Origin: Candidatus Sericytochromatia bacterium
Lineage (GTDB): Bacteria > Cyanobacteriota > Sericytochromatia > S15B-MN24 > VGJW01
Assembly (NCBI GenBank): GCA_035285865.1
Contig: JAYKHS010000018.1
Coordinates: forward strand, 1-60,506
DNA length: 60,506 nt
Direction: 5' to 3'
The notes under the pieces are model-generated. The model ran no database searches and had not been told where the DNA came from. It was given only the letters and a program-made list of their open reading frames with translations. Below, piece after piece: positions 25,932 through 53,546 of the stretch. The first letter of the stretch is position 1. Each line of letters begins with the position of its first letter. Both the position numbers and the translations under genes were made by a program.

Positions 25932-26032
25932 GCATCCCTTATGCCTCGAAAGGCTCCGGATCTTGCCTCCGGGGACCGAGACCAGGACGGCCGGGACGCA
26001 CGGGCGTGCGATGGTGCATGATGGTCCTGTCC

Positions 26033-30599: not shown

Positions 30600-30637
30600 A
30601 GGTTTACCAAGTGCGGACGCATTGATGCCGACAACCC
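30600..30637 (+). promoter_or_regulatory. Conserved upstream element AGGTTTACC-N21-GACAACCC (copy 1)
   Basis: 30 nt upstream of ATG 30668; same boxes as at 34316-34352 and 52594-52630. Confidence 0.75.
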
Positions 30638-30667
30638 ACACAGACCCCCAAGCCGGAGCTTACCCAG

Positions 30668-32347
30668 ATGACCGCGATCCGCAGGCTGAACACCCCGCAG
30701 GGTGCGTCCCCGCGTGTCCAGGCCGGCGGCGGCCCTGCGAAGCCGGCGATGCGCTGGATCCCGTCGGTAAATCACAACGCCCGGCCCGGCGGCCCCGGCG
30801 ACCTCGACACGATTGTCCTGCACCACACGGGCGGCGGCTCGCTGGAAAGCAACATCGCGTGGATGAACAACCCCGCCAGCAAGGTGTCCGCCCACTACAC
30901 GGTCGGCAAGGACGGCCGCATCGTGAACAGCGTCCGCGACCAGGACCGGGCCTGGCATGCCGGTGTCAGCCGCTACCAGGGCCGTGACGACGTCAACGAT
31001 TTCTCGGTCGGCATCGAGATCGTCAACAAGGGCGACCATGTGGACCCCTATCCTCCCGAGCAGATGGAGGCCGTGGCGCACCTCGTCGCATGGCTGATGA
31101 CGACCCACGGCATCAGCTTCGAGCGCGTGACCGGCCATCGGGACGTGGCCCTGCCCAGGGGGCGCAAGGTCGACCCCTCGAACAACTTCGACTGGCAGGA
31201 TCTCAAGAACCGGGTCCAGCGGCATCTGGGCAACAACCCGACGTCACCCGGCGGTCCCCCCGCCTCTCCCCCGGCCGCACCGGTGGACCAGGCCCCCGCG
31301 CCACGCCCGGCGCCGGCACCTGCTCGCCCCGACGGCACCATCACCGTGCGCAAGGGGGACACGCTCTGGCATCTGGCGCAGGTTCATCTGGGCGACGCCC
31401 ATCGCTGGCGCGAGCTCTACGAAGCCAATCGCGACCGCCTCAAGGACCCCAATCTCATCCTTCCGGGCCAGGTGCTGCGCCTTCCCGGCGCGACGGCAAC
31501 GCCGACGCCCTCACCAGCACCCGCGCCGGGCCAGCCGGCTCCCGCCCAGCCCGCACCCGTGCCCGGTCAACCCGCACCGGTCCAGCCTGCACCCGGCGGC
31601 ACGATTCTGCCGGTGCATCCTCCGGCCGCACCCATGCCCGGCCGCCCCTATGTGCCGCCCGTGCGCGAGATCGCTCCGCCGCCCCCGGCACAGCCCCCCC
31701 AGCAGGCCCAGCCCCAGCCAGCACCATCGCCGAACCCGCTCCCATCCCCCGCGCCGGCACCGCAGCCGACGCCCGGCACGGGCGTGGATCGTCTGGGCTG
31801 GGCCCTGCGCGGCGGTACCCCGCTCGCCGGCGGCCTGCTTTCCGGAGGCCTCGGCCAGAACTGGGGCGGAGCCGGTACCCGCCTGGGCTCGGGGCTTCGC
31901 GTTCCCGGCGGCCTGATGGGGTCAGCCTTGTTAGCGGGCCTCGGCGCCACCCTATCCAATGTCCTGGATTGGCGCGCCGGCAGAATCAGCGGTCGCCAGG
32001 CCCTCGTGGGCACGGCCGTGGACACGGCGGCCTACACGGGAATTGCGGCGGCTTCGACCTGGATCGGGGGCCTCGCCGGAAGCATCCTTCCCGGACTTGG
32101 CACCGTCATCGGCATGGCGGTCGGTACGGTCGCCGGGGTCGGGCTCTCGTGGCTCTACGAGAAGTTCGTCCGGTCCCGGGGCGTCGCGATGGCCGGCTCA
32201 GCCACGCAGGGCATCGGCAACGACCTGGTGCCGCGTCCCGCAACGGTCGGGATCATTCCGTCGACCGGCACCGTCAGCACGACAGCTGCTCCCGCCGCCC
32301 CGCGCCCGTCCTTCGACAGCAGCTCCCTGATCCCTCAGGCCCGCTGA
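30668..32347 (+). CDS. N-acetylmuramoyl-L-alanine amidase (Amidase_2) + LysM + Pro-rich linker + C-terminal glycine-zipper membrane domain
   Basis: IVLHHT, SAHY, AWHAG, SVGIEIVN, GHRDV..RKVDP; LysM TVRKGDTLW...NLILPGQVL. Confidence 0.92.
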   Translation: MTAIRRLNTPQGASPRVQAGGGPAKPAMRWIPSVNHNARPGGPGDLDTIVLHHTGGGSLESNIAWMNNPASKVSAHYTVGKDGRIVNSVRDQDRAWHAGVSRYQGRDDVNDFSVGIEIVNKGDHVDPYPPEQMEAVAHLVAWLMTTHGISFERVTGHRDVALPRGRKVDPSNNFDWQDLKNRVQRHLGNNPTSPGGPPASPPAAPVDQAPAPRPAPAPARPDGTITVRKGDTLWHLAQVHLGDAHRWRELYEANRDRLKDPNLILPGQVLRLPGATATPTPSPAPAPGQPAPAQPAPVPGQPAPVQPAPGGTILPVHPPAAPMPGRPYVPPVREIAPPPPAQPPQQAQPQPAPSPNPLPSPAPAPQPTPGTGVDRLGWALRGGTPLAGGLLSGGLGQNWGGAGTRLGSGLRVPGGLMGSALLAGLGATLSNVLDWRAGRISGRQALVGTAVDTAAYTGIAAASTWIGGLAGSILPGLGTVIGMAVGTVAGVGLSWLYEKFVRSRGVAMAGSATQGIGNDLVPRPATVGIIPSTGTVSTTAAPAAPRPSFDSSSLIPQAR

Positions 32348-32373
32348 CCGGCGCCAAACGCAGGGTCGCCCCT

Positions 32374-33453
32374 TCAGCCGAGGCGCTTCTCGGAAGACGG
32401 ATCGAAGAGGTGCACGCGTGCGGGGCGCACCGAGAAGACGGCCCGGGCTCCGGGTGCCGGCGTGGCCTCGATCGGCACGCGGGCCAGTGCCGGGCCACGG
32501 GCCGAGGTGGCGCTCAGATGGACGTAGCTCTCGGACCCGAGGGTCTCGACGACATCGACATCCGCCTCCAGGACACACCCCCCGGAGGCCTGTCCCGGCT
32601 CCAGATGCTCGGGCCTCAGGCCGACGACCACCTTGCCGGGACGATGATGCGGCTCGGCCGGAAGGTCGAGCGAGAGGCCGGGGGCCGTCACACGGGCTCG
32701 GCCACCGGAAACTTCGAGTACCGCGTCGAAGAGGTTCATCTGGGGCGAGCCGATGAAGGTAGCCACGAAAAGATTTGCAGGTCTGTCGTAGACCTCGAGC
32801 GGGGATCCGTGCTGCTGCAGGTCGCCGCCACGCATCACGGCAATGCGGTCCCCCAAGGTCATGGCCTCGGTCTGGTCGTGGGTGACGTAGACGAAGGTCG
32901 TCGCCAGGCGCTGATGCAGTTTCTTGATCTCGGCCCGCATCGACACGCGCAGCTTGGCATCCAGATTGGAAAGCGGCTCGTCCATCAGGAAGACCTTGGG
33001 CTCGCGGACGATGGCCCGACCGATGGCGACGCGCTGGCGCTGGCCACCTGAAAGCGCCTTGGGCTTGCGCTCGAGGAGGTGCTCGATCTCGAGTGAGCGC
33101 GCAGCCTCCCGGACCTTGGTATCAATCTCGGCCACAGGCAGCTTGCGCAGCTTCAGCGCGAAGGCCATGTTCTCGTAGACCGTCATGTGCGGGTAAAGCG
33201 CGTAGTTCTGGAAGACCATCGCGATATCGCGTGCCTTGGGGTGCAGGTCGTTGACGACGACCTCTCCGATTCGGAGATGACCGCCCGTGATCTCCTCGAG
33301 CCCCGCGATCATCCTGAGTGCCGTCGACTTGCCGCAACCGGACGGTCCGACGAGGACCAGGAACTCCTTGTCCTCGACCGACAGGGACAGCTCACGGATG
33401 ACCACGTTGTCCCCGTAGCGCTTCTCGACCTTGTCGAAATCCACCTTGGCCAT
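32374..33453 (-). CDS. Orphan carbohydrate ABC transporter ATPase (MalK/UgpC/MsmX family)
   Basis: GPSGCGKST, FQNYALYPH, LSGGQRQR, DEPLSNLD, VTHDQ, TOBE tail. Confidence 0.95.
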   Translation of the reverse strand: MAKVDFDKVEKRYGDNVVIRELSLSVEDKEFLVLVGPSGCGKSTALRMIAGLEEITGGHLRIGEVVVNDLHPKARDIAMVFQNYALYPHMTVYENMAFALKLRKLPVAEIDTKVREAARSLEIEHLLERKPKALSGGQRQRVAIGRAIVREPKVFLMDEPLSNLDAKLRVSMRAEIKKLHQRLATTFVYVTHDQTEAMTLGDRIAVMRGGDLQQHGSPLEVYDRPANLFVATFIGSPQMNLFDAVLEVSGGRARVTAPGLSLDLPAEPHHRPGKVVVGLRPEHLEPGQASGGCVLEADVDVVETLGSESYVHLSATSARGPALARVPIEATPAPGARAVFSVRPARVHLFDPSSEKRLG

Positions 33454-33525
33454 GCGTCGGCTCTCCTGACCGGGCGAGTCCGTATGCCAACCGTTCATCC
33501 CGGATAAGGAATCCTAACAGAATCA

Positions 33526-33563
33526 AGGCCCCTCGGGCGGCTTCGTGCGCGCCCGAGAGGCCT
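33526..33563 (-). terminator. Probable intrinsic terminator of the 33580-34272 gene
   Basis: Hairpin AGGCC.CTCGGGCG / CGCCCGAG.GGCCT, followed on the minus strand by TGATTCTGTT. Confidence 0.6.
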
Positions 33564-33579
33564 GACTTCGGACAGGAAA

Positions 33580-34272
33580 TCAGCTGGCGACGGGGATGAC
33601 CGACGACCGAGCCTGCGCCGGGGTCACGGCCTGAGCCTGGACAGGGGCCTGGGGCGTGGCGGCCGCGGCAGGCGCCGTGGGGGCCGACGGAACGGGTGTC
33701 GTGGAGGACTGGTTCGTCAGACCCTCGAGCTGGCCCTGAATGGCTCCATTGAAACCGGGACGGACCTTGTTCTCGTAGAACTTGCCCGCAAAGTAGCTGA
33801 ACAGCGCACCGACGCCGATGCCCACGACGGTACCGATGCCGGGGACGAGGCTGCCGACGAGGCCGCCCAGCATCGTCGCGGTGGCGCCGATGCCGGTGTA
33901 GGCGACAGTATCGCCGGCGGTGCTGGCCACGAACTTCGTGAACGAACTGCGGCCGCTGACAAGATCAATCGCGTTGGTGAAGACCGACATCAGGCCGGCG
34001 AGTGCGAAGTTCGACTTGAGCAGACCGGGCAACGTGCGCAGGCTGGTGCTGATGGCGCTGCCGATGCCCGAGAAGAATCCGCCACCGACACCCACTCCGC
34101 CGGCAACCATCGCCCGGGTCGCATCGGCACCGGCGCGGGACAGCTGGAAGGCATCGCGGGCTGCACCCAGTGCCTTGGCCGACTGGATGACCGGCACGGC
34201 GACGCGCAAGCCACCGTGCATGTCGGTGTTGGCGAAGGGGCCGACAGGTGCGGCAGGTCCGTTGATGGCCAT
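33580..34272 (-). CDS. Hypothetical protein carrying the shared 68-aa glycine-zipper domain (paralog 2)
   Basis: GAGGT RBS and ATG at 34272 (MAINGPAAP...); domain at 33772-33975. Confidence 0.8.
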   Translation of the reverse strand: MAINGPAAPVGPFANTDMHGGLRVAVPVIQSAKALGAARDAFQLSRAGADATRAMVAGGVGVGGGFFSGIGSAISTSLRTLPGLLKSNFALAGLMSVFTNAIDLVSGRSSFTKFVASTAGDTVAYTGIGATATMLGGLVGSLVPGIGTVVGIGVGALFSYFAGKFYENKVRPGFNGAIQGQLEGLTNQSSTTPVPSAPTAPAAAATPQAPVQAQAVTPAQARSSVIPVAS

Positions 34273-34315
34273 CGGGAATACCTCGCTCAGGGGGGGAGCC
34301 AAGGGGGTGACGATG

Positions 34316-34352
34316 GGGTTGTCCGGAGAACCTTCGACAATCCGGTAAACCT
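34316..34352 (-). promoter_or_regulatory. Conserved upstream element AGGTTTACC-N20-GACAACCC (copy 2)
   Basis: Minus strand reads CAGGTTTACC ggattgtcgaaggttctccg GACAACCCC, 43 nt before the ATG. Confidence 0.75.
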
Positions 34353-34428
34353 GCGGTGAAGAAAATCCCAATTCCGGGAGAAGGATCATCACCCCTGACG
34401 GTGGTACAAAGCTCAAGCAGGCTTCTTC

Positions 34429-36288
34429 ATGCAATTCGGACGCCGCCCCGCCATCGAGCAGTTCTACGCCATCCGCAAGACACGCGGCCTGGCGCTCTCG
34501 GCTGACGGGCAGACGGCGGCCTTCGTCACCAACATCACGGGTACTCCAGAGGTCTGGACCGTGCCGACGGCCGGAGGCTGGCCCCATCAGCTGACCTTCG
34601 GGGAACAGGCCGTGCAGCAGGTGCTGTGGGCCGACGACGGCGAGAGCCTGATCGTGTCGATGGACCATGATGGCGACGAGGACTTCGAGATCTTTCGCGT
34701 CCCTCGGGCCGGAGGCATTCCTACGCGACTGCACGCTGCCGTCAAGGAACAGACCCACCTCGGGGGCGTCTCCCCGGACGGATCCCTGTTGGCCTATGCC
34801 AGCAACCAGGGCCATCCGGCCTCGTTCGACATCCTGCTTCATGACCTGAGGTCGGGCGAGGAGCGGGTGCTCTGGCGCAGCGACCTCGTGGATTTGCCCC
34901 TCGAGTTCTCGCCCTGCGGCCGCTGGCTGCTCGCCTACCGCTTCGAACAGAACGCCAACCAGGATCTGCTGCTCATCGAGGTCGCCACGGGGGAAGGCCG
35001 CATCCTCACGCCGCACGAAGGCCTCGTGCGCAACCACAGTGCCGTGTGGATACCCGGCAGCGCCTCATTCCTGTTCCTGACGGATAGGGACCGGGACTTC
35101 ATGGGCGTGGGACGCTACGACCTCGACTCGGGCAACTGGACGTGGGCCCACGCCCCCGAATGCGACGTGATGGAACTGGCCGTCTCGGCGGACGGACGAT
35201 GGTGGGCATTCATCGAGAATCGGGACGGACATTTCGTGCCGGTCCTCCACGACCCGACGACCGGTGCGCGGATCGACCTTCCCGAATACGCCACGGGTGT
35301 AGCCAGCGAACCGCGCTTCTCGCGCGACGGCCGGACCCTCGCCTTCTGCCACGAGTCCCCCGTACGTCCGCGTGACGTCCATGTCTTGGACCTGGCCCAC
35401 GCCAACCGACCAGGTCGGCAGATTACCTTCTCGCAGATCGGCGGCCTGTCCGCTCGAGATCTGGTGATGCCCGAAACCCTCCGCTTCCCGTCATTCGACG
35501 GGCTGGAGATCACCGGCTGGCTGTTCACCCCGCGCGGCGAGGCCCCTCCCGGAGGCTTCCCGGCGATCATCTGGCCGCACGGAGGCCCGGACGCCCAGGT
35601 CATCGCCAACTTCCAGCACTGGTTCCAGGTCTTCGCCGGCGCCGGCTACGTGGTCCTCGCCCCCAACTTCCGCGGCAGCACCGGCTACGGCAAGGCCTTC
35701 CAGGCCCTGAACCGCCGGGACTGGGGCGGAGCCAGCTTCCGCGACATCGTGGCAGGCGCCGATCATCTGGTCGGGACCGGCATCGTGGATCCGACGCGCG
35801 TTTCGGTCGTGGGCGGATCGTTCGGTGGCTTCATGGCCCTCACGGCCGCGACGCGCGAACCGGACAAGTGGGGGGCCGTCGTCGACATCTTCGGCATCAG
35901 CAATCTGTTCACCTTCATCGAAACGACTCCGGCCTGGTGGAAGCCCTACCTGCATCAGATGGTGGGGCACCCCGAAGAAGACCGCGCCTTGCTCGAGGAG
36001 CGCAGTCCCATCAACTTCATCGATCAGGTCAAGGCCCCCATCCTCGTCATCCAGGGAGCCAACGACGCACGCGTGGTCAAGGCCGAATCCGACCAGGTCG
36101 TCGAACGCTTGCGCAGCCGTGGCGGCACCGTCGAGTATCTGGTTTTCGAGGACGAGGGCCACGGTTTCAGCCATGTCACCAACGAGATCCAGGCAGCAAG
36201 CGCCATCGTCGGCTTTCTCGATCGCCACATGCCTGCGGCCAAGGCGCGCGAGGCCGCCCTGCTCCCCGAACAGGGACAGCCCGCTTAA
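34429..36288 (+). CDS. S9 family serine peptidase (prolyl oligopeptidase/acylaminoacyl peptidase-like) with beta-propeller
   Basis: HGGP, PNFRGSTGYG, GGSFGG, QGANDARV, DEGH. Confidence 0.95.
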   Translation: MQFGRRPAIEQFYAIRKTRGLALSADGQTAAFVTNITGTPEVWTVPTAGGWPHQLTFGEQAVQQVLWADDGESLIVSMDHDGDEDFEIFRVPRAGGIPTRLHAAVKEQTHLGGVSPDGSLLAYASNQGHPASFDILLHDLRSGEERVLWRSDLVDLPLEFSPCGRWLLAYRFEQNANQDLLLIEVATGEGRILTPHEGLVRNHSAVWIPGSASFLFLTDRDRDFMGVGRYDLDSGNWTWAHAPECDVMELAVSADGRWWAFIENRDGHFVPVLHDPTTGARIDLPEYATGVASEPRFSRDGRTLAFCHESPVRPRDVHVLDLAHANRPGRQITFSQIGGLSARDLVMPETLRFPSFDGLEITGWLFTPRGEAPPGGFPAIIWPHGGPDAQVIANFQHWFQVFAGAGYVVLAPNFRGSTGYGKAFQALNRRDWGGASFRDIVAGADHLVGTGIVDPTRVSVVGGSFGGFMALTAATREPDKWGAVVDIFGISNLFTFIETTPAWWKPYLHQMVGHPEEDRALLEERSPINFIDQVKAPILVIQGANDARVVKAESDQVVERLRSRGGTVEYLVFEDEGHGFSHVTNEIQAASAIVGFLDRHMPAAKAREAALLPEQGQPA

Positions 36289-36833
36289 GGCAGGAAAAGG
36301 CCGGTGCGGGCATCCAGCCTGAAAGTCCCCTCGGGGGCATCCAGGGTCCACGTCGCCCGACGCTGAGGGTTGACTTGATCCAGGCGAATGACGTCGAAAC
36401 GCCCAGGCGTCATGCCCTGACGGACAGCCACGGCAGCGGCCTGATCGCTATCGATGCGCGGCCTGTCGGCAAGGGCCTCGAGCTCAGGATCCCGCAGGGC
36501 AACACGGGTCGACATGCCCTGCTCCCCGTACTGCAGGACGACCATCTCGCGAGGGCGCTTGCCGGAGACGAAGGCATAGGTCCAGTCGTGAACCATGTAG
36601 CCGGACATCATCGGTCCGCCGACGATGCGGGCGAGACGCGCCCGATCGTCCCATGCGAGGGCCGCACGCTCTGCGGCAGCAAGGCCGGAAAGCGCCGTAA
36701 GGACACCCGCCGACCGAGCCAGCATCCCGGCATCACCCGTGGCGGCCAGGCCAGGCCGCTGGGGCGGAGCCCAGCCACAGCCCGCGAGTGCCAGGACGGC
36801 ACACGACAAGAGCCGAAGCAAGCGTGAGGGCAT
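36285..36833 (-). CDS. Hypothetical lipoprotein (PepSY-like C-terminus)
   Basis: Lipobox LALAGC; IDSDQAAAVA...RLDARTG. Confidence 0.7.
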   Translation of the reverse strand: MPSRLLRLLSCAVLALAGCGWAPPQRPGLAATGDAGMLARSAGVLTALSGLAAAERAALAWDDRARLARIVGGPMMSGYMVHDWTYAFVSGKRPREMVVLQYGEQGMSTRVALRDPELEALADRPRIDSDQAAAVAVRQGMTPGRFDVIRLDQVNPQRRATWTLDAPEGTFRLDARTGLFLP

Positions 36834-36957
36834 TATGAAGAAATCCTATAATATAACGATAAATTAACACAGGCGGCCAATCCGGACAACTCCGGGCCCG
36901 ACGGGGGCCGGAGGGTACAATGGAGAGCCCCGTTCCCCTGCTGGAGCCCCGTCGCCC

Positions 36958-39940: not shown

Positions 39941-39949
39941 CGGCTCTCG

Positions 39950-41809
39950 TCAGCGGAAGGACGCCGTCGCCACGAGGTGAGCACCCGTGCGCGTGAATGA
40001 GTCATCCGATGAAAGATAGTACTCGTTGCCCTCTCGGGGGCCCTTCCACTCGTTGGCTCCGTCCGCCGCAGTACCCTTCGGCCAGACCTCGAAGTACCCG
40101 GTCCGGTCGATGAAACCGGACGTCGAGGAAACGATGCTATTGGGCGAATCGACGAGCGGCTCGTTCGGGCTGGGTGTCTTGCCGGCCGCAGGCGTCCGGA
40201 TCAGCGGTGGCTCGAGCAGGGGATTGACGAAGGGCGTGCGGTGCCACGTCCAGCTGTCGGTCGCCGCCGGGTTGGCGCGGTCGTAGGACATCCAGATGAA
40301 GTTGGTATTCGCCTCGACGTAGGCGGTCGTCGTGTTGGTCTTGTCCGGGCGAGCATCCTCCCAGAGATAGAAGAAGGTCTGCATGGGCGGCGCATTGAAT
40401 TTATTGACCGTGCCATCCGGATAGAAGTACTGCTGCAGGTCTCCGGGTGCCGGGGTCACGGGGACCGAGTCCGCACCCCACTGGTAGCGCCCGTAGGTCA
40501 CGAGCCTGTAACCCAGATTTCCATCCGCCCTGAAGACCTGGCCGGACATGGTCGCTCCGGCCGACAGGCTCCGGCCGACGTTGTCGAGCACGCCAGGGAA
40601 CCAATTGAAATCCGGAGGCACCGTGTTGGCACCGAGCTCCGTCTCCACCGACTCACGGGAAACGTTGAGCGCCTTGAGCTCCATGCCGCCACTGGAAACG
40701 TAGATGTACTTGCCGGTGATTTCCGATGGCTTGAAGGTCTGTTTGTCCCCCTTGCCGTCGATGCGGCCCTCCGTGACGGCCGCAAGGTAGAAGCGCAGCA
40801 AGCGGTCCGAGCGACGCTGATCGACACCCAGGGTCGCCGCGGTGCCCGCAAGATATTCCCTCAGGTCCAGACGACAATAGACGGCCACACGCCCGCCGCT
40901 GGGCATCTCGTAGAGCTTCTTGTAGAAAGGCGTGTCCAGCAGGTTCATCGGGGCCGGATACTCGGCCGTCCTGTTGGGCCACTGCTCCCCGGTCGGCCGA
41001 TAGGTGGATTCAGCCGGGATGTACTTGGCTTCGAGGGGAGTCGGCGAAGGTCCGGGAACGGAGGGAGCCGGGGTCGCGGGCAAGCCGGTGGCGGCCGCAC
41101 CCGCAGTCAGGGGCAACAACTGCTCGTACCAGAAGCTGTGCTTGACCGCCTTGTGGCCATTGCGCGGATCGCCGCCCGCGCTCACGGTCGTCAGATAACC
41201 GTCGCCGGGGAACAGCGCACCCGTCTGGGCGTCCTTTCGCTGCGCGATGATGATCGGAAAGGACGTCACTCCGGCACCGGTGTACCAGTCGTCATCGATC
41301 TTCGTGTCGCGGGGCACCAGGCGCCAGTATCGGGTCATCGCGGCAAAGGAGGCTGCGCTGCTGTTCCAATTGCCGTCGAACAGGCGCCAGTCGCAGAACG
41401 CGGGCCAATTTCGGGGATTGGCCAGCAGGGTCAACTGCAGCAGCGGCTTGTGACGCAGCATCGCGTCGGCAGTCTGGGCCGGGTAGAGCGCATTGATGTC
41501 CAATTCCGACGTGGTGCGCGTGGTCGCGGCCGAGTAGTGTCCGGCCTCGACGGTCGGGCTGAACGTACCGTTCACCGTCCAGTAGGCCATCAGCATCTTG
41601 TCCATGCCGGACAGGATTTCCGTTTCGGCGAACCGCAAGGCCAGATCGGCATCCTCTCGGGAGGACAGTTGCCGCGCGAGGTTCTTGCCCACCTTCTGAT
41701 CCGTGAGCACGCGCAACACGACCGCCGTCACCAGGCCTGTCATGACCACCGAGATCACGATCGCGAAGACCAACGCGAAACCCCGCGACGCCCGGCCTCG
41801 GTCACGCAT
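39950..41809 (-). CDS. Large PilX/GspK-like minor pilin
   Basis: Class III signal RG|FALVFAIV lacking Glu5; third gene of a translationally coupled pilin trio. Confidence 0.75.
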   Translation of the reverse strand: MRDRGRASRGFALVFAIVISVVMTGLVTAVVLRVLTDQKVGKNLARQLSSREDADLALRFAETEILSGMDKMLMAYWTVNGTFSPTVEAGHYSAATTRTTSELDINALYPAQTADAMLRHKPLLQLTLLANPRNWPAFCDWRLFDGNWNSSAASFAAMTRYWRLVPRDTKIDDDWYTGAGVTSFPIIIAQRKDAQTGALFPGDGYLTTVSAGGDPRNGHKAVKHSFWYEQLLPLTAGAAATGLPATPAPSVPGPSPTPLEAKYIPAESTYRPTGEQWPNRTAEYPAPMNLLDTPFYKKLYEMPSGGRVAVYCRLDLREYLAGTAATLGVDQRRSDRLLRFYLAAVTEGRIDGKGDKQTFKPSEITGKYIYVSSGGMELKALNVSRESVETELGANTVPPDFNWFPGVLDNVGRSLSAGATMSGQVFRADGNLGYRLVTYGRYQWGADSVPVTPAPGDLQQYFYPDGTVNKFNAPPMQTFFYLWEDARPDKTNTTTAYVEANTNFIWMSYDRANPAATDSWTWHRTPFVNPLLEPPLIRTPAAGKTPSPNEPLVDSPNSIVSSTSGFIDRTGYFEVWPKGTAADGANEWKGPREGNEYYLSSDDSFTRTGAHLVATASFR

Positions 41810-42783
41810 CACAAGGACCCTCCCTGGGGAAGCGGTACGTTGCGGGCATAGGCATAACCCTCGACCACCACGCCGTCCAAGGGCTCGCCATCCCCGTTGC
41901 GCTGGTTGCCGCCCGGAAGCGCTGCCCGGCCCGGATCGCCAGCCATGAAATTCCAGGCCACTTCATAGGGGCTCAGCAAGTTCGAGTTGGCCGCCGGATG
42001 ATCGAGCAGCAGACGAAAAACCGTCTTGACGCCCTCAGGGGCATAGACGGGCAAGCCGTCCGGTCCCTCGCCGGGCACGACCGTCGCAAGCACCAGACCC
42101 TGCGTCGCCCCGCAATTCAGCGTCGCAGCGGTGTTGCTCGCCCCCGTCCAGTGCTGGCCATTGAGCGCCGTGTCGGACGCCACGAAGCGGACGACATGCT
42201 CGGGCAGCGGGCCACCCGCCGCGCGGTAGTTGACGTCCATGCGAAACTGCTCGCCCGTGGCCGTATTGATGGTGCCGGTACAGGCCATCGACAACCGGAT
42301 CAGACGGTTCCAGAGCCCCTCCCCCTTGCGCTCGTCGGCCGTGGGATTGCGCGGATCCGCAGGGCCATTCGTCCGCATGTAGGCCACGAATTGGGGCGTC
42401 TCCATCGTGCCCAGCAACATCACGAGGGCGTCCGTGGGCAGGCCGTTGGAGAGCGAACCCGAGCGCAGCTCGTCGCCCCAAGCGGCAGGGACGGTCATCT
42501 GCCCGTTGCCCGGAAGCCATGTCGACACGGACAGGCCGCCAACCTTGACCCCGGAATCCACCACGATCCGGGTCGAATGATAGATGTAGCGGGCTACACG
42601 GATGTCATCACCCAGCCGGACGGTCGCGAAGCGCGACTGCCCCAGCGCGGAGGACTTGGCGTTGACCTTGGCGGCGTACCCGCCCCAGCGACGCGTCAGT
42701 TCAAAGGAGGTCGCCACCACGATCGAAAATACGACGATGCCGGAAACCAGCTCGACCAGCGTGAACCCCCGACGCCTGCTCAT
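41809..42783 (-). CDS. PilW/GspJ-like minor pilin
   Basis: MSRRRG|FTLVELVSGIVV prepilin motif. Confidence 0.85.
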   Translation of the reverse strand: MSRRRGFTLVELVSGIVVFSIVVATSFELTRRWGGYAAKVNAKSSALGQSRFATVRLGDDIRVARYIYHSTRIVVDSGVKVGGLSVSTWLPGNGQMTVPAAWGDELRSGSLSNGLPTDALVMLLGTMETPQFVAYMRTNGPADPRNPTADERKGEGLWNRLIRLSMACTGTINTATGEQFRMDVNYRAAGGPLPEHVVRFVASDTALNGQHWTGASNTAATLNCGATQGLVLATVVPGEGPDGLPVYAPEGVKTVFRLLLDHPAANSNLLSPYEVAWNFMAGDPGRAALPGGNQRNGDGEPLDGVVVEGYAYARNVPLPQGGSL

Positions 42784-43772
42784 TGCCCCAGCACCCGACC
42801 CGAAATGACGACGGAGGAGCTGGCGAGTTCCTTTTGGTACTTGCCCCCGTCCACGAAGGACCAGTCGCCCGAGAAGTCTTTGGCCTGATACGTTCTTGCG
42901 ACCACGATACGGGTCATGCAATCGACGAACTCGCTCGAGAAGCCACCGCGCTCGGAAGGCTTTCGGCCCGCCCGTGTATCGAACACGAAGAGACGGCCCG
43001 TGTCTAGACGGCCGGCGGTGCGCGGCGAACCGATGGCCGAATCGGCCAGCAGGGCGTAGGCCCTGCTCGATAGGCCGGTGGCGGGCAGAATGCCGGATGC
43101 ATCCGAACCCACGTGGATGGTGTTGGCCGACTCCGTGATGCCGGACATGTCCTCGGTGCCCTTCTCGACGTTGCGCATCGCCGCGTCGGACAGGCCGAAG
43201 CACTGCAGGCGCACGACATACCGCACGCCGTTAGGCTCTGCAAGCGACGTCGCGAACTCGCTCTGCTCATCCACGACTGTGGACAGCTCGCGACCGGAAT
43301 TATTGAACTTGAAGGGCGTGGCGAAGGGGGTCTCGTTAAACCAGTCGCCATAGAGATTGGAGACGTCCAGCACGAGCTGACCATTGACCGTCTTGGTCGG
43401 AATGGCCGCCAGGGAGCGGCCTGGCGGAGCCTCGATGGGTCTGCCGTTGTCCGGAAAGAGGTCGAAGAAATACTGAGTGACTTGAGCACGCTGCTGAAGC
43501 AGGCGATAGGCCCGGTCATAGCGCTGGCCGTCCGTCATGAACGCCAACGAATTCTCGGTGGCGAGATCGGCGAGGATGCCATCCAGCACACGATCCGACA
43601 GGCTCTGCGCGTAGGGTCCCTCCATGGCCCTGTTGCCCGATCTCGAGAAATTCATCAGCAGTTGGGCCATGGAACTCAGGACGATGCCCATCACGGCCGC
43701 AGCCACGAGGTTCTCGACGAGCGTGAAACCCCTCGCCCGCCACCGCGTGGGGAAAGAGCCCGAAGGTCGCAT
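42780..43772 (-). CDS. PilV/GspI-like minor pilin
   Basis: RARG|FTLVENLVAAAVMGIV prepilin motif. Confidence 0.85.
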   Translation of the reverse strand: MRPSGSFPTRWRARGFTLVENLVAAAVMGIVLSSMAQLLMNFSRSGNRAMEGPYAQSLSDRVLDGILADLATENSLAFMTDGQRYDRAYRLLQQRAQVTQYFFDLFPDNGRPIEAPPGRSLAAIPTKTVNGQLVLDVSNLYGDWFNETPFATPFKFNNSGRELSTVVDEQSEFATSLAEPNGVRYVVRLQCFGLSDAAMRNVEKGTEDMSGITESANTIHVGSDASGILPATGLSSRAYALLADSAIGSPRTAGRLDTGRLFVFDTRAGRKPSERGGFSSEFVDCMTRIVVARTYQAKDFSGDWSFVDGGKYQKELASSSVVISGRVLGQ

Positions 43773-43854
43773 GCCTGCATCGTTCCCCCCCTTTCCGCAT
43801 GCCTAACGGACGAGGGTCCCTTGACGACCGGGTCACCAGGGGCAACCTCACCGC

Positions 43855-45200: not shown

Positions 45201-45244
45201 GCGCGGTCGAGACCTGCTGACGTTGGAGTGCCTTGCTTGTGCCG

Positions 45245-45256
45245 CATGCTAGCATG
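45245..45256. promoter_or_regulatory. Perfect palindrome CATGCTAGCATG between the divergent dprA-like gene and pcrA
   Basis: Reads as the extended -10 TGnTAGCAT on both strands. Confidence 0.5.
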
Positions 45257-45264
45257 GGGGTCCC

Positions 45265-47568: not shown

Positions 47569-48113
47569 AAGCCGAGACGCGACCAGAAGCCCTTGCGGGC
47601 CGCCAATTTCTCGCCCTTCACGCGAGCACCCTGCATGGTTTCGGCCACGGCATCGATGATGTCCTCCTCGACCTTGGCCTTGTGCAGCAGGGTAAACACG
47701 CGATCGATGCGCTCGTTCGTTCCGGAAAGCCGCTCGGCCAGCGTACGGGCGACCTGAAGCAGGATGGCCGGGTTCTTCGCCAGTAGCGACTCGAAATTGC
47801 GGTACACCGTGAAGGTGCACGGCGTGAGCGCACGCACCGTGGCGGATCGCGGCTTGCGCAGCAAGGCCCCGACCTCACCGAGAACCGCACCGGGCCCCTT
47901 GACCACGGCGACACGTTCGTCGCCGACCAGAACCTCGACCTCGCCCTCGTCGAGGACGATGACGTCGAAACTCGTCTCACCATCCTTGAAAACCGACTTG
48001 CCGGGGCCGCAGGTCCAGTTGCGCGGGGGCGTCACGGCATCGGGCGGCGGAGGGGCCGCCTTGCCTTGCGCAGGGCGATCCCATCCGGGGGACTTCTTGG
48101 GATTCTCGGTCAT
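47565..48113 (-). CDS. Stand-alone cyclic-nucleotide-binding domain protein
   Basis: VFKDGE...LDEGEVEV...GEVGALLRKPRSATVRA; ATG at 48113 with GGAGG RBS. Confidence 0.88.
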   Translation of the reverse strand: MTENPKKSPGWDRPAQGKAAPPPPDAVTPPRNWTCGPGKSVFKDGETSFDVIVLDEGEVEVLVGDERVAVVKGPGAVLGEVGALLRKPRSATVRALTPCTFTVYRNFESLLAKNPAILLQVARTLAERLSGTNERIDRVFTLLHKAKVEEDIIDAVAETMQGARVKGEKLAARKGFWSRLGF

Positions 48114-48163
48114 GTCGTCCTCCGTGGGGGGCGTTGAAGCGCGCGCAATCCCGCGAAACGGCC

Positions 48164-48193
48164 TTGACCCCCTGCTTGATTCTTTCGTAACAT
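48164..48193 (+). promoter_or_regulatory. Putative sigma70 promoter of hppA
   Basis: TTGACC-N18-TAACAT in an AT-enriched intergenic stretch. Confidence 0.5.
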
Positions 48194-48317
48194 ACCCTTT
48201 CAGTCTCCCTTTGTCGTCTCTTTTCCTGACCTTGGTTCTCCGAGGCAACGGTCGACGTCGCGGCGACGCCCCGGAAACGGCCAGCGCGCCCTCCCAGCAA
48301 GGAAGGTTCCCGAACCC

Positions 48318-50444
48318 ATGGCTCCAGACCAGATTTTTCATCTGATCACGTGGTTCTCCATTGCCGCATCCCTGGCGGCACTCGTGGTCGCAGGCGGCCT
48401 GACCGGATGGGTGCTGAAGCAGCCCGCCGGCAATGCCCGCATGCAGGAGATCGCCGGAGCCATCCAGGAAGGCGCCGCCGCCTACCTGAACCGGCAGTAC
48501 ACCACCATCGCCGGCGTGTCGGTGGTGCTGGCCGCCCTCATCTTCTTCTTCTTCCGCACGGCCGATGACGCCATGCACGGCCTCGTGCCCGCGCTGGGCT
48601 TCGTCGTCGGCGCCGTGTTCTCGGGCTTCGCCGGATATGCCGGCATGAACATCTCGGTTCGTGCCAACGTCCGCACGACGGCCGCTGCCGAGCGGGGCCT
48701 GCCCCAGGCGCTGGACGTGGCCTTCCGCGGTGGCGCCGTCACCGGCTTCGCCATCGTCGGCCTGGGCCTGCTGGGCGTCGCCGCCTTCTTCATGTGGCTC
48801 TTCCCGACGGATGCGGCGGCCACGGGCGCAGAGCACAACCGCGAGCTGTTCAACCTGGCCCTCGAGGGCATGGGCTTCGGCGCCAGCCTCATCTCGCTGT
48901 TCGCCCGCGTGGGCGGCGGCATCTTCACGAAGGCCGCCGACGTCGGCGGTGACCTCGTCGGCAAGGTCGAAGCGGGCATTCCCGAGGACGATCCCCGCAA
49001 TCCGGCCACCATCGCCGACAACGTCGGTGACAACGTCGGCGACTGCGCCGGCATGGGTGCCGACCTGTTCGAGACCTACGTCGTCACGATGATTGCCGGC
49101 ATGCTGCTCGGCCAGTTCGCCTTCCCCGGCAGCGCGCAGGGCGTGCTGCTGCCCCTCGCACTCGGTGCCGCCGCCATCGTGGCCTCGATCGTCGGGTCGT
49201 TCTTCGTCCGCCTGAGCGCGAACGAGAACATCATGGGCGCCCTCTACAAGGGCCTCTTCGCCACGACGGCAGTCGCCGTGGGCCTGTTCTACTACCTCGT
49301 CGAGAAGGTCATGGGCGACAGCGCGATGCCCTTCTTCTGGGCAGGTTCGATCGGTCTCGCCGTCATGGTGCTGATCACCCTCATCACCGAGTACTACACC
49401 TCGACGAACTTCCGCCCCGTCAAGGTCATCGCCGAGTCGTCGCAGACCGGTCCCGCGACCAACATCATTTCGGGCCTGGCCGTCGGCATGGAATCCACCG
49501 CCGTGCCCATCGTGATCATCATCGCCGGCATCGCCGGGTCGTTCTTCATGACCCAGGGTCTTGCGGCCGAGGGCGTCGAGCCGCTCATCATGGGCGCCTA
49601 CGGCATCGCCATCGCGGCGGTCGGCATGCTCTCCACCGCCGGCATGGTCGTGGCCATCGACTCCTATGGGCCCATCACGGACAACGCGGGCGGCATCGCC
49701 GAGATGAGCGAGTTGCCTGGGACCGTCCGCGAGATCACGGACAAGCTGGACGCCGTCGGCAACACGACCAAGGCCGTCACCAAGGGCTACGCCATCGGCT
49801 CCGCCGGTCTGGGCGCCCTGGCCCTGTTCATCACCTTCACGAAGAAGGTCGATGGCTTCGAGAACCTCAAGGGCATCGTCTACACGCTGCAGGATCCGAT
49901 GATCATCATCGGTCTCTTCCTGGGCGGCATGTTGCCCTTCCTGGCCTCCTCGATGTTCATGAACGCCGTCGGCAAGGCGGCACAAGCCGTCATCGTCGAA
50001 GTGCGTCGTCAGTTCCGCGAGATGCCCGGCATCATGGATCGGACCCAGAAGCCCGATTACGGCAAGGCCGTCGACCTGGTCACGCGTGCCGCCATCCGCG
50101 AGATGCTGCTGCCCGGTGCCATCGCCGTCATCGCACCGGTCGTGGCCGCATTCGTCGGCATCAAGCTGCTGGCCGGCATGCTGTCCGGAGCCATCCTGAC
50201 GGGCATGCTGATGGCGCTCATGATGGCTACCGGTGGTGGTGCCTGGGACAACGCCAAGAAGTACATCGAGCTGGGCAGCTTCGGCGGCAAGGGCTCCGAT
50301 GCACACAAGGCGGCCGTCGTGGGCGACACAGTCGGTGATCCCTTCAAGGACACCGCCGGCCCCGCACTGAACCCGATGATCAAGATCCTGAACATCGTGG
50401 CGCTGCTCGTGGTCACGGCGTTCGCGACCCAGCTGCATCCGTAG
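48318..50444 (+). CDS. hppA: Membrane-bound H+-translocating pyrophosphatase, K+-independent type
   Basis: [46 protein letters not shown] carries the Lys diagnostic of K+-independent enzymes. Confidence 0.96.
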
Positions 50445-50458
50445 CGCGGACCAGCCAC

Positions 50459-50498
50459 GGAAGCCCCCGTACACCTCGACAGGTGCACGGGGGCTTCC
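50459..50498 (+). terminator. Stem-loop downstream of hppA
   Basis: GGAAGCCCCCGT.CACCT-cgac-AGGTG.ACGGGGGCTTCC; weak U-tract. Confidence 0.6.
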
Positions 50499-50646
50499 CG
50501 TCTCCGAGGACGCCAGCGTACATCGTCACGTCTGCCGATGAGCCGGGTATGGAGCAGACAAGACGCCCCCGTCGAGGGAGCCGCGTCTCGGCGGACGGAC
50601 CGCCGGGCAAGCCTTGGTCGAGATCCGGCCATAATCCGGTAGCAGC

Positions 50647-51789
50647 ATGGAGACCCCCATTCGGAATGGCAGGCCTGCAGTCACGCAGGGCCAGTCTGCC
50701 GGCGCGCGCAAACGCCCGGAGGCCCCCCCGCGGGCCGTGATTCGACAGGAGAGGCCGGGGTCGGTGGATGCCCGCCAACTCTCCGCACCCGCATCCCGTG
50801 CTGAGGAACAGTCACTGCTGGCAGCCGGCTGGCTGCCGCCGGAATACGCGAAGGCGCGAGGACGCAGTCGCGAGGCCGCCGAAGCCCTTGCCATGCGCCC
50901 AGGCAGCCCTCCGCGCTCCATGAGCTACACGGACCCGGCCATCATGCTGCGGGGTGCCCGCACGCTCGCAGGCACGCCCGAACTCCAGGAGCTGGCTAGG
51001 ACGGTCAGGCGCGGGGATATTGTCCTGACTGCGGAATTCCTGCCCGGAGATCCCGTGACCGGGATGACGGGCGGACCGTTCAATCACGCGATGATCTGCA
51101 TCAAGGACGGGCCCCAGCCCGAGTTCATCGAGGCCATCGGCGTCACGGGCGGCAAGGACGATCCCACGGGCAGCCGTGTCCGCCAATCGCGGATTCAGGA
51201 CTATGCCATCCGCCACATCGCCTTTCGGGTGCTGCGCCCCGCCGACGCCCTGCCGCCCGGCAAGCGCGAGGCCGCGATCGACCGGGCAGTAGCCTATGCC
51301 GAACGCCAGCTGGGTCGCCCATACGACTACGCCTTCACCAACCACGATCAGGGCAAGGGCGGGGAAAAGGCCTTCTACTGCAGCGAACTCGTTTATCTGG
51401 CGTGGGCCTCCCGCGAAGGGGCCGGGGTCGCGATGCCGATCGCGCGCGACGATTCACTGAATCAGGGCATGCGGGCTGTCCATGCCGTACTGGATGCAGC
51501 TGGCCCCGTCCGCCCCAATGAAACGCTGCGTCCCATCGTGCGCGACGTGATGGACGGTCGGCCGCCCCTCGAGATCATCAAGACGCTGCTGGGGCGCGTC
51601 CTGCCCAGACTCCGAGGACCGGATCTCAAGGCGCTCGGCGAAGACCTCGTCGCCAAGGCCACCGGGAAGGCCACCGAACGCCAGACTGTCCCCCGGTTCG
51701 TATCGCCGACGGATCTGGCGTGGGGCGGACAGCCCGTGCGAGACTTCAACACCAAGGGCCGCAATTTGGATCCCGACGCCCCCCGGTAA
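50647..51789 (+). CDS. Permuted papain-like NlpC/P60 (YiiX/YebB-like) cysteine hydrolase with a disordered N-terminus
   Basis: RRGDIVL, FNHAMI (His), LGRPYDY, FYCSELV (Cys), VSPTDL. Confidence 0.85.
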   Translation: METPIRNGRPAVTQGQSAGARKRPEAPPRAVIRQERPGSVDARQLSAPASRAEEQSLLAAGWLPPEYAKARGRSREAAEALAMRPGSPPRSMSYTDPAIMLRGARTLAGTPELQELARTVRRGDIVLTAEFLPGDPVTGMTGGPFNHAMICIKDGPQPEFIEAIGVTGGKDDPTGSRVRQSRIQDYAIRHIAFRVLRPADALPPGKREAAIDRAVAYAERQLGRPYDYAFTNHDQGKGGEKAFYCSELVYLAWASREGAGVAMPIARDDSLNQGMRAVHAVLDAAGPVRPNETLRPIVRDVMDGRPPLEIIKTLLGRVLPRLRGPDLKALGEDLVAKATGKATERQTVPRFVSPTDLAWGGQPVRDFNTKGRNLDPDAPR

Positions 51790-51843
51790 CGGTGGCGCCC
51801 ATGGCCTCCCGAAGCACGAGCGGCGAGGGTGGTTACCGAGCGT

Positions 51844-52557
51844 TCAGCCCTGGAACATCTTCGCTTCGACAGTCTTTCGGAAGTCGGGCTTCAGGAGCTT
51901 GTCGTACATCTCGCTCGCAAGGATGCCGACGCCAGCACCAACCAGCATGCCGATGAGCGTGCCCGCCACAGGCACGATCGAGCCGACAAGCCCGCCGATG
52001 GCGGTGCCGAGCGATCCGGCCACCGTGTAGCCGATGCCGTCTGCCACGGTACCGGCCAGCATCTGATTCTGCGTGATCTGGCCCTTGCGCATGTCGATGA
52101 AGTTCTGCACGAACGCCAGCGGGAAGCTGATGAGCGCGCCCAGCTTGAGGCTGCGGAAAACATTGAGCGGATTCAGGGCCTGGCCCAGCGCAGCCCCGAA
52201 GGTCGGCTTCAGGCCTTTGAGGCCATCCACCGAGGCCTTGAGCATCAAGCCGGCATCCGCAGACCGCGCAACGGCCGACACTGCCGCACGGTTCATCATC
52301 TCGGGAATCATCCGCACCGGAGCCACGGCGCCGATGACATTCAGGGTGTGCGCACCCGGGCGGGCCATAGGATCGACAGGTGCAGCACCCGGAGCTTGAG
52401 GCATCAAAGGCGCGGAGGGCCCCTGCACGAAGCGATCCGGCTGGGGAGCAGGAAGCGGCTGCGGAAGCTGGCCGGGCTGGGGCATCGGGGCCAGCGCGGG
52501 AGGCGTGGGCACGACGCTGGATGCGGACCAGGGCGAGACGGCGGGGACCATCGTCAT
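51844..52557 (-). CDS. Hypothetical protein carrying the shared 68-aa glycine-zipper domain (paralog 3)
   Basis: GAGGT RBS and ATG at 52557; Pro-rich N-terminus; domain at 51901-52104. Confidence 0.8.
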   Translation of the reverse strand: MTMVPAVSPWSASSVVPTPPALAPMPQPGQLPQPLPAPQPDRFVQGPSAPLMPQAPGAAPVDPMARPGAHTLNVIGAVAPVRMIPEMMNRAAVSAVARSADAGLMLKASVDGLKGLKPTFGAALGQALNPLNVFRSLKLGALISFPLAFVQNFIDMRKGQITQNQMLAGTVADGIGYTVAGSLGTAIGGLVGSIVPVAGTLIGMLVGAGVGILASEMYDKLLKPDFRKTVEAKMFQG

Positions 52558-52593
52558 CGGGAGGACCTCGGACAGCATGAGAAGGTGACAAGG

Positions 52594-52630
52594 GGGTTGT
52601 CCGCGATTGTCCCCGCCGCTCGGTAAACCT
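52594..52630 (-). promoter_or_regulatory. Conserved upstream element AGGTTTACC-N20-GACAACCC (copy 3)
   Basis: Minus strand reads CAGGTTTACC gagcggcggggacaatcgcg GACAACCCC, 36 nt before the ATG. Confidence 0.75.
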
Positions 52631-53393: not shown

Positions 53394-53546
53394 GGTGCAC
53401 CTCCTTCAGGTCGGGACGCCTCCTCTATCCCCCGACGGCCATGCCAGTCCCTTGGACGATCCTTACGGTTTCTCCCGGCCATCCTGATGGTCGGCCACGT
53501 CGCGGCCCGGCAGGATCAAGGCCAAACCGACAGAGGAGACGAAACC

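Follow-up and report, generated by a model that had tools for sequence, protein, structure and literature searches.

Three dispersed genes in a 60,506-nucleotide (nt) stretch of DNA from a Candidatus Sericytochromatia bacterium (assembly GCA_035285865.1, contig JAYKHS010000018.1; the whole stretch is called the window below) share a protein module that we term X, and each stands behind the same promoter-like motif. One of the genes, amidase-X, joins the module to a peptidoglycan amidase; the other two are named X2 and X3. The Sericytochromatia are uncultured, non-photosynthetic relatives of the cyanobacteria whose cell biology is essentially unknown. What is new in these genes is an unnamed, lineage-restricted protein family, together with a regulon that joins a putative second sigma-28-type promoter class with wall enzymes devoid of signal peptides; what is known is the kind of glycine-zipper hairpin that the module contains. 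Since the family is lineage-restricted, yet its hairpin is of a known kind, we regard X as an unnamed variant within the glycine-zipper kind. No description of the X family or of the motif was found in the open-access literature searched. We hold with high confidence that the family and its conserved regulon are real. How X works is a matter for more tentative proposals, which are weighed further below.

The amidase-X gene (30668..32347, + strand) encodes 559 amino acids (aa), with an Amidase_2 domain at aa 45-171 (PF01510; 121.7 bits against a cut-off of 26), a LysM domain at aa 225-273 (PF01476; 35.4 bits against 20.9), a Pro-rich linker and an X module at about aa 412-505. The cytoplasmic anhydro-muramyl amidase AmpD (NF008758) was considered as an identity for this protein and rejected, given a score of 109 bits against the NCBIfam cut-off of 143 and the misfit of the LysM domain and X module. 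X2 (33580..34272, - strand, 230 aa) begins behind a GAGGT Shine-Dalgarno (SD) sequence and an ATG, and its helical N-terminal part, which contains GGLRVAVPVI, is followed by a Gly-rich stretch, the X module and a tail rich in Pro and Ala. X3 (51844..52557, - strand, 237 aa counted from the ATG at 52557) starts in a GAGGT-N7-ATG context, as X2 does at 34272, and comprises a Pro-rich N-terminus, a helical part and a C-terminal X module. Gene calls and start codons are the product of our own heuristics. The X domain itself lies at 31958..32161 (+; amidase-X aa 431-498), 33772..33975 (-; X2 aa 100-167) and 51901..52104 (-; X3 aa 152-219), and the three copies match a profile built from the three of them with E values of 1.9e-35, 9.0e-35 and 9.6e-35, respectively.

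Aligned with MAFFT, the three segments fill 68 columns with zero gaps, and those of X2 and X3 are each 46% identical to the amidase segment. Twenty columns are invariant (N1, D4, G8, T19, D22, Y26, T27, T34, G37, G38, L39, G41, S42, P45, G48, T49, G52, V55, G56 and Y67). Pairwise local BLOSUM62 scores of 133-155 compare with a mean of about 34 and a maximum of 67 among 2000 composition-preserving shuffles per pair (z = 15.4-18.6; 0 of 2000 shuffles attain the observed score), and positions 1-28 alone, which lie outside the Gly-rich zipper, still reach z = 5.9-7.0. Homology is longer than these 68 aa: it takes in a hydrophobic helix of about 20 aa on the N-terminal side ('LKSNFxxxxxxSxxxN') and about 8 aa on the C-terminal side ('YEKFxRP'). 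As read from these sequences, the conserved X module is thus predicted to span about 100 aa, in which a hydrophobic helix precedes a helical hairpin of glycine-zipper type and the 68 aa form the core. None of the three proteins has a signal-like hydrophobic stretch at its N-terminus when the translations are read, and neither an h-region nor a lipobox is present in the N-termini MTAIRRLNTPQG..., MAINGPAAPV... and MTMVPAVSPW.... In a 19-residue hydropathy scan the first segment appears only at aa 412 of amidase-X, aa 56 of X2 and aa 132 of X3. The hydropathy of the X helices is moderate (1.3-2.1), and the distribution of charge would fit a hairpin with both ends in the cytoplasm, positive residues lying before and after the hairpin and the PGxGT turn being neutral. 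From the moderate hydropathy and the likeness to glycine zippers, we consider it likely that X inserts into a membrane.

Much of this bears out a first-pass annotation of the window made from the letters alone. It had proposed a paralogue family sharing exactly 68 aa, and its coordinates and residue pattern for the gapless alignment are correct, with T34 invariant besides; only the extent needs amendment, the 68 aa being the core of a homology that runs on at both ends. The paralogy that it proposed withstands composition-matched shuffling, and a decoy test aimed at Gly-rich composition did not refute it. The remaining features that it listed are likewise found: no Sec signal in the three N-termini or in the hydropathy scan, Pro/Ala-rich flanks in all three translations, a peptidoglycan hydrolase in one member (Amidase_2 and LysM, both above their cut-offs), and a domain that it could assign to no named family, the named families that touch it being sub-threshold glycine-zipper models only.

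The position of X relative to known families was examined with several resources. Against Pfam, no model scores above its cut-off on the shared part, and the X parts of X2 and amidase-X have no match at all; X3 gives sub-threshold matches to Gly-zipper_Omp (PF13488; 17.0 bits against 25), DUF1269 (PF06897; 17.6 against 26.9) and DUF456 (PF04306; 14.2 against 29.4). The weak matches to Gly-zipper_Omp, DUF1269 and DUF6861 fall on X positions of about 28-68. NCBIfam yields nothing above cut-off on the X part, the nearest models being MamC (E 0.03) and YiaD (E 0.25). When the 3-segment profile was run against 1.84 billion cluster representatives, 115 matched at E <= 1e-3 and 26 at E <= 1e-10. The strong matches are mostly small proteins of 160-360 aa, mostly with no Pfam domain on the X part, and among the 26 best only P0020 passes PF13488 (27.6 bits against 25). 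The set includes a few fusions: Amidase_2, LysM and X in P0003 and P0017, CHAP/DUF1287, LysM and X in P0014, and LysM with X in P0007, P0021, P0044, P0053 and P0075. The weak tail covers X positions of about 20-68 only and consists of generic glycine-zipper proteins, including phage tape-measure proteins with 3-7 zipper repeats, P22 gp7-like proteins, and one LXG, one DUF4280 and one RHS protein. Among 43 family members compared with PHROGs, 16 match phrog_16692 (function unknown; best E 4.8e-12), 10 the 'tail associated lysin' phrog_1047 (best E 6e-5) and 7 the tape-measure family phrog_167 (best E 1.4e-5); no holin family occurs among the Pfam matches or among the 25 PHROG families shown of 28 matched. 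The best match of the profile in the PDB is chain g of 9ki1, a 'probable tape measure protein', at E 0.052, and the others, at E > 0.3, are at chance level. In a 5.8-billion-protein set the close homologues number 8, called 'hypothetical protein [Candidatus Sericytochromatia bacterium]' where they are named and carrying no precomputed Pfam domain. Neighbours in the ESM Atlas, which serve as leads only, include a cluster with PF13488 in 19% of its members (score 0.90), colicin-like pore formers (0.86) and MamC (0.85). A Foldseek search of a model of X2 against the PDB returned nothing at E <= 0.001 (best E 2.9, an Orai channel), the model being too weak for fold assignment. Taken together, these comparisons indicate that X is an unnamed family whose C-terminal half belongs to the broad glycine-zipper kind, and that its nearest relatives outside the lineage are, as far as sequence can tell, the membrane segments of phage tail proteins.

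The distribution of X is sharply bounded. The host assembly, which measures 2.82 Mb and is 82.67% complete, holds exactly three copies by profile search. All 27 genomes of the same order that were searched (four families, host included) contain X, in 1-6 copies each, while a profile search found it in none of 20 genomes from the class's remaining families. Of 254 genomes from elsewhere in the phylum, 3 gave a weak match, all from a single genus of 1.7-1.8-Mb genomes in a different family; these three (G072:C1:92672-92857, G136:C6:20616-20801 and G174:C11:31022-31198) have E values of 3e-9 to 4e-7 and lie in open reading frames (ORFs) of 450-478 aa. A maximum-likelihood tree of 31 modules resolves an X3-type clade with 99/97 support, whose members come from families f1, f3 and f4, and a second clade that unites X2-type with hydrolase-fused copies. 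Because the X3-type clade spans families, the paralogues are older than the radiation of the order. Retention of distinct paralogue types across the order is compatible with hetero-oligomerisation, a feature that the first-pass annotation had imagined for the family. Within the genus the orthologues are 62-78% (amidase-X) and 87-89% (X2) identical; those of X3 are 82-91% identical. Families f1 and f3 keep the gene order GH57, amidase-X (forward), MalK-like ATPase (reverse), X2 (reverse), S9 peptidase, and in both X3 adjoins an H+-pyrophosphatase gene. The neighbours in the window are housekeeping genes (glycogen enzymes, UvrD, ATP synthase), with no phage genes. Conserved synteny and housekeeping surroundings argue for a vertically inherited cell-biological function and against a mobile toxin/immunity module; with the lack of immunity-like genes alongside, they also tell against a polymorphic toxin.

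The second element that unites the three genes is the motif. It reads AGGTTTACC-N21-GACAACCC upstream of amidase-X (30600..30637, +), where it ends 30 nt before the ATG at 30668 and is followed by the SD sequence GGAG. Upstream of X2 it reads AGGTTTACC-N20-GACAACCC (34316..34352, -), with an SD sequence and start 45 nt downstream, and the same AGGTTTACC-N20-GACAACCC precedes X3 as an exact pattern match (52594..52630, -). The -10 parts of the three sites are GCCGACAA, CCGGACAA and GCGGACAA. The 2.82-Mb assembly has exactly three sites of the pattern AGGTTTACC-N20/21-GACAACCC, each 15-45 nt upstream of the start of an X gene, and none of a reversed control; the count in the window is 3 against 0.00 expected. 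The motif of amidase-X is retained at the orthologous sites in genomes G001, G002 and G003, and the core TTTACC-N~20-(C)CGA[CT]AAC recurs before X-family genes in other families of the order. Relaxed to TTTACC-N19-21-GAYAAC, it has five exact sites in the host genome, all 19-45 nt before an SD sequence and start codon. Counted over the order's 27 genomes, the core gives 95 sites where the reversed control gives 19; a stricter pattern with one more fixed base has 78 against 4, and in 20 genomes of other families 27 against 65. The excess for the stricter pattern is thus confined to the order, so that the enrichment of the motif is distributed as X is. Allowing one mismatch in the host genome gives 22 sites against 13 in the control, mostly noise, among which only C11:160101 is plausible, preceding a lipoprotein with a subtilase-like motif.

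The sites of the order are also coherent in their construction. An SD sequence and start codon lie within 160 nt downstream of 84 of the 93 distinct readable sites. The spacer of the 93 measures 20 nt in 69, 21 nt in 23 and 19 nt in 1, and their consensus is T-N9-CTTTACCG-N-CCCGATAACCC, in which the -10 part CCCGATAACCC has C before GA in 80% and T at the Y position in 69%. A conserved T, often within TTAG or TTAA, stands exactly 10 nt upstream of TTTACC in 85% of the 93 sites (loci L002-L145). Its constancy suggests a third promoter element or an activator half-site. An upstream element shared by all three genes, which had been noticed from the letters, is accordingly borne out by three exact sites in the assembly and none in the control, and a promoter-like motif confined here to these genes and conserved before their orthologues across the order points strongly to co-regulation. 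The regulon that the first-pass annotation called undescribed proves larger than it claimed, for a Flp pilin and lipoproteins belong to it as well, and sister genomes add many wall enzymes that lack a signal.

What might read this motif? Promoters of sigma-28 have the consensus TAAA / TAAAGTTT at -35, then N11, then GCCGATAA at -10. The -10 part of the motif, (G/C)CCGAYAA, and its 8-mer-N11-8-mer geometry agree with that consensus, and the same N11 geometry is present in the host's own flagellin promoters, such as TCAAGGGT-N11-GCCGATGA. At -35 the motif has CCGRWTT or CAAGT after TTTA; the host flagellin genes carry TAAAGG or TCAAGG. On this resemblance we infer that the motif is probably the promoter of a FliA-family sigma factor. 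The host genome has a true FliA (C22:93524-94189; 258 bits against a cut-off of 189.6) and, within a cluster of flagellar genes, a second sigma factor that is FliA-like (C26:115412-116134). The latter was considered, with FlhA, as an explanation of a motif specific to one order, and the two were set aside: both are class-wide and track neither X nor the motif. As observations on the flagellar genes themselves, the host has two full-length FlhA (FHIPEP) genes, at C22:98567-100531(-) and C26:119467-121464(+), with flagellar sets on two contigs; two full-length FlhA genes recur in nearly all of the 41 genomes of the class searched, and many of these add stand-alone ORFs of the FlhA C-terminal domain. 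The FlgJ homologue (C26:114987-115415; L069:10987-11415, +) is a 142-aa protein with the rod-binding domain only and no muramidase, which means that a flagellar wall hydrolase must be encoded elsewhere. The ORF at C26:117473-119395 (L069:13473-15395, +) encodes 640 aa in which YscJ_FliF, YscJ_FliF_C and the FliG middle domain are joined, and looks like a natural FliF-FliG fusion.

The products behind the motif give the regulon its character. The five host sites precede the three X genes, a 53-aa Flp/Fap pilin on contig C26 (PF04964; 33.1 bits against a cut-off of 32.2) and a 227-aa lipoprotein. Across the order there are 92 downstream products, of which 18-21 belong to the X family; sorted heuristically, the 92 comprise about 15-19 lipoproteins, 2 Flp pilins and about 70 proteins without a signal, some of the last being mis-called starts or chance sites. 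Pfam searches of the 67 non-X products found, among those without a signal, Glucosaminidase with LysM or PG_binding_1 (4), NlpC/P60 (1), SLT (1), Amidase_2 (1), a GH19-like domain with LysM (1), Peptidase_C39-like domains (4), LysM only (2) and PG_binding_1 only (4); the lipoproteins match CarboxypepD_reg (4), EF-hand (3) and Peptidase_C11 (2). About 30 of the 67 fall into no family, and the sites before GCV_T, CorA and UvrD-like genes are evidently due to chance. The N-termini of the signal-less products are disordered, and 19 of 73 begin MA[IV]. Judged by these predicted domains and N-termini, the regulon is dominated by proteins that would have to act on peptidoglycan without a Sec, Tat or lipoprotein signal. 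The fusions follow the same rule: every hydrolase-X or LysM-X fusion examined is without a signal peptide, namely the window amidase, its orthologues in six genomes, and P0003, P0014, P0017, P0021, P0044, P0053 and P0075. The host's X-less Amidase_2 and LysM paralogue (C4:34770-35468, +; 42% identity over aa 26-273), by contrast, has a lipoprotein signal (…LTLAGCG…) and no motif. That the X fusions are signal-less while the X-less paralogue has a lipoprotein signal is our reason for viewing X as a putative substitute for a signal peptide.

Wall enzymes that lack a signal are known to cross the membrane by way of holins, type 10 secretion or the flagellar export of FlgJ. We propose that X would offer a further way. 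It would insert into the cytoplasmic membrane of the producing cell without a Sec signal and form a homo- or hetero-oligomeric lesion or channel, through which the peptidoglycan would become accessible to the fused amidase and to the signal-less wall enzymes expressed with it. Its action might resemble that of a holin, or of the glycine-zipper membrane segments found in tape-measure and tail-lysin proteins of phages, following a logic akin to type 10 secretion. According to one report (PMC10240207), membranes are permeabilised or crossed by glycine zippers in the N-terminus of a type VI secretion system (T6SS) effector and in tape-measure C-termini. A profile search for the T6SS sheath protein TssC gave a match in 0 of the 27 genomes of the order. 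A self-inserting X is the most economical reading because the fusions are signal-less, the zipper resembles those of phage, zippers are reported to permeabilise membranes, and the T6SS sheath was not found. Still, an export or holin-like role strikes us as possible at somewhat less than an even chance. The fuller proposal, in which X is the membrane part of an undescribed, signal-peptide-independent export or lysis system, derived from or convergent with phage tape-measure and tail-lysin segments, controlled by a FliA-family sigma factor and deploying a battery of wall hydrolases, we advance tentatively, as a reading more apt to need revision than to stand whole. Its purpose could be controlled autolysis or secretion, or attack in conjunction with a Flp/Tad pilus.

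Several observations tell against this proposal. No holin family is matched in Pfam or PHROGs, and holins are typically smaller than the X proteins. Hydropathy values of 1.3-1.4 on the Kyte-Doolittle scale make two of the three helices marginal as transmembrane segments. The AlphaFold2 model of X2 (43-row alignment), which has four helices, is weak, with a mean predicted local distance difference test (pLDDT) of 63.5 and a predicted template modelling score (pTM) of 0.29. Many members of the regulon are ordinary Sec lipoproteins, and amidase-X is the sole wall enzyme that the regulon holds in this genus, which leaves X2 and X3 with no evident 'cargo' here. Of the 41 genomes searched, 40 have a flagellar type III export apparatus, and this may be the real export route, since flagellar type III export is a known path for signal-less wall enzymes such as FlgJ. 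With respect to the motif, about 12 of the 31 X genes examined lack it in exact form, most of those without the exact core carrying near variants (GATAGT, GATAAG, GATATC, TTAACC). Moreover, the genomes are kin and their counts are not independent, and the pattern was derived from the feature and then counted, with the reversed-pattern control as the only guard.

The most serious competitor makes X a passive C-terminal anchor or scaffold. The wall enzymes would then be exported by another route, most plausibly flagellar type III, whose late genes sigma-28 reads, and would locally open or tether the wall for flagella and Flp/Tad pili, the whole forming a regulon like the late flagellar one that serves the assembly of polar organelles. 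This account draws on the CCGAYAAC of the -10 part, so like the sigma-28 consensus, and on an N11 spacing that is that of the host flagellin promoters; on the true FliA, the second FliA-like sigma factor in the flagellar cluster and the two FlhA genes; and on a host FlgJ reduced to its rod-binding domain, with no muramidase of its own, while signal-less, FlgJ-type Glucosaminidase enzymes stand behind the motif in four sister genomes. The Flp pilin of the regulon would find its place here too, as would disordered N-termini of which 19 in 73 begin MA[IV]. The distribution fits less well: FlhA and the second sigma factor are class-wide, whereas X and the enrichment of the motif are confined to one order. 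The wall enzymes, of about ten kinds, go beyond what the insertion of organelles should need, many members of the regulon are Sec lipoproteins, and the flagellin promoters have a different -35 element. A multi-helix hydrophobic module at the C-terminus would, besides, be unusual in a type III substrate. On balance we think a passive X rather improbable, if by no means negligible.

A further possibility is that the X proteins are offensive weapons, with a wall-cutting head and a membrane-permeabilising zipper tail that are delivered to prey or competitors by an attack regulon, possibly one linked to Flp/Tad. In a study of TelE, an LXG effector of type VII secretion (T7SS), the zipper was reportedly required for toxicity (10.1101/2022.09.07.506920). 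The layout of hydrolase, LysM and glycine zipper mirrors that of phage tail-associated lysins and tape-measure proteins, and the regulon is rich in wall-degrading enzymes and includes a Flp pilin. Among the distant matches of the profile are LXG, DUF4280 (PAAR-like) and RHS proteins with a C-terminal zipper (P0054, P0079 and P0091), although these cover only the Gly-rich positions of about 20-68, at E 1e-4 to 1e-5. The report cited above also has the glycine zipper of Tde1 as a requirement for its entry into target cells (PMC10240207). Against weaponry, the genes are single-copy per type and syntenic among housekeeping genes, with no small, conserved, immunity-like neighbour; delivery domains of the LXG, PAAR or RHS kind are missing from the core family; and with TssC in 0 of 27 genomes no delivery route was identified in the checks made (TssC, delivery domains). 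We judge an offensive function distinctly unlikely.

That there is nothing specific here at all, X being mere Gly-rich transmembrane composition or a set of ordinary outer-membrane housekeeping lipoproteins of the Gly-zipper_Omp or SlyB/Pcp-like sort, is hardly credible and largely refuted: the weak PF13488, PF06897 and PF04306 matches, the passage of P0020 above the PF13488 cut-off and the PF13488-bearing first neighbour cluster in the protein atlas (a lead only) would speak for it, but the segments score 15-19 standard deviations over composition-matched shuffles and z = 6-7 in the non-Gly half, the window proteins fall below every curated cut-off on the X part and carry no lipoprotein or Sec signal, polar positions (N1, D4, T19, D22, Y26, T27) are invariant, and an order-limited distribution is coupled to a dedicated promoter.

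A comparison with described systems helps to place both the module and the regulon. With the Pfam glycine-zipper families (PF13488, Gly-zipper_YMGG PF13441, the 'glycine zipper 2TM' family Rick_17kDa_Anti PF05433, PF06897 and DUF6861 PF21724) X shares a C-terminal half, GGLxGSxxPxxGTxxGxxVG, that has the form of a GxxxG-type hairpin. It differs from them in a further conserved half, N-x2-D-x3-G-x10-T-x2-D-x3-YT, with a helix preceding it, in the lack of a lipoprotein signal, in its confinement to one order and in having its own promoter. Phage tape-measure proteins and tail lysins (PHROG 167, 1047 and 16692) likewise unite a wall hydrolase and a Gly-zipper segment in one polypeptide, and tape-measure proteins are also found among the distant representatives P0047-P0052. 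However, the X genes lie outside prophages, encode about 180-560 aa and are syntenic, chromosomal and vertically inherited, and where tape-measure proteins have 3-7 zipper repeats, X has one zipper unit; the matches to phage tails are weak and may owe less to common ancestry than to the motif that both sides share. In holin/endolysin cassettes and type 10 secretion systems (T10SS), small membrane proteins are expressed together with wall hydrolases that lack a signal, in a set that also includes lipoproteins, as is putatively the case here. The X genes, in contrast, are dispersed, longer than the usual holins and without a holin sequence match, and the lipoproteins here are large enzymes or EF-hand proteins and not spanins. 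The likeness to holins and T10SS lies in a possible way of working and not in family membership. T6SS and T7SS glycine-zipper toxins (the Tde1 N-terminus, TelE-type LXG proteins) share the zipper, and the LXG protein P0054 is among the distant matches; the X loci differ in being conserved and not polymorphic, and in having no LXG, PAAR or RHS carrier and no immunity-like neighbour. Promoters of the sigma-28 group (FliA/SigD/WhiG) agree with the motif in the -10 part and the N11 geometry and differ from it at -35, where the motif has (TTTA)CCGRWTT or (TTT)ACCAAGT and not TAAAG or TCAAG, and in the extra upstream T; the members of the regulon, unlike those of sigma-28 regulons, are envelope proteins and not flagellins or chemotaxis genes.

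The wider interest of these genes lies in a regulon of one lineage that sequence alone suffices to recognise and that couples an unnamed, putative membrane module to a dozen kinds of signal-less proteins that cut or bind the wall. If X is indeed an export or lysis device, it would represent a new solution to the transit of wall enzymes, linked to the glycine-zipper segments of phage tails. Even if X is only an anchor, the motif would allow co-expressed envelope genes to be predicted in the 27 genomes searched and would represent a second sigma-28-type promoter class beside the flagellin promoters, and the family deserves a name, 115 of 1.84 billion cluster representatives matching it.

Other genes in the window are of interest as context. 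Between amidase-X and X2 lies a gene for a MalK/MsiK-type ABC ATPase (32374..33498, -; Pfam ABC_tran, OB_MalK and TOBE_2). It shares the strand of X2, 81 nt downstream of that gene, and has no permease beside it; its position is kept in families f1 and f3. It was considered as a partner of X and set aside for the present, for it is the sole MalK-type ATPase in the assembly and so probably the shared ATPase of sugar importers. Directly upstream of X3 is an OmpR/PhoB-type winged-helix gene (52641..53360, -; Trans_reg_C, 56.3 bits), a candidate regulator only, which adjoins X3 in the genus and more loosely in G004. A second gene of this type lies at about 53440-54281 (+), divergent from the first, and in both Pfam finds Trans_reg_C only, with no receiver domain. 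Convergent with X3 is a gene for a Peptidase_C92 protein, a permuted papain-like amidase of YaeF/YiiX type (50647..51789, +; Pfam 30.4 bits against 27), which has no signal peptide and whose neighbourhood the genus conserves; a GCCGATGA box resembling the -10 element of the flagellin promoters stands about 110 nt upstream of its start. At 41809-43772 (-), beside rhomboid protease and LytR_cpsA_psr genes, two ORFs have an N-terminal methylation (type IV pilin-like) motif. Finally, at 25796-28937 (+) a nitroreductase-family gene, a type III polyketide synthase (chalcone/stilbene synthase-like) and an ICMT-family methyltransferase follow in a run, an arrangement that we take to recall phenolic-lipid (alkylresorcinol) operons.

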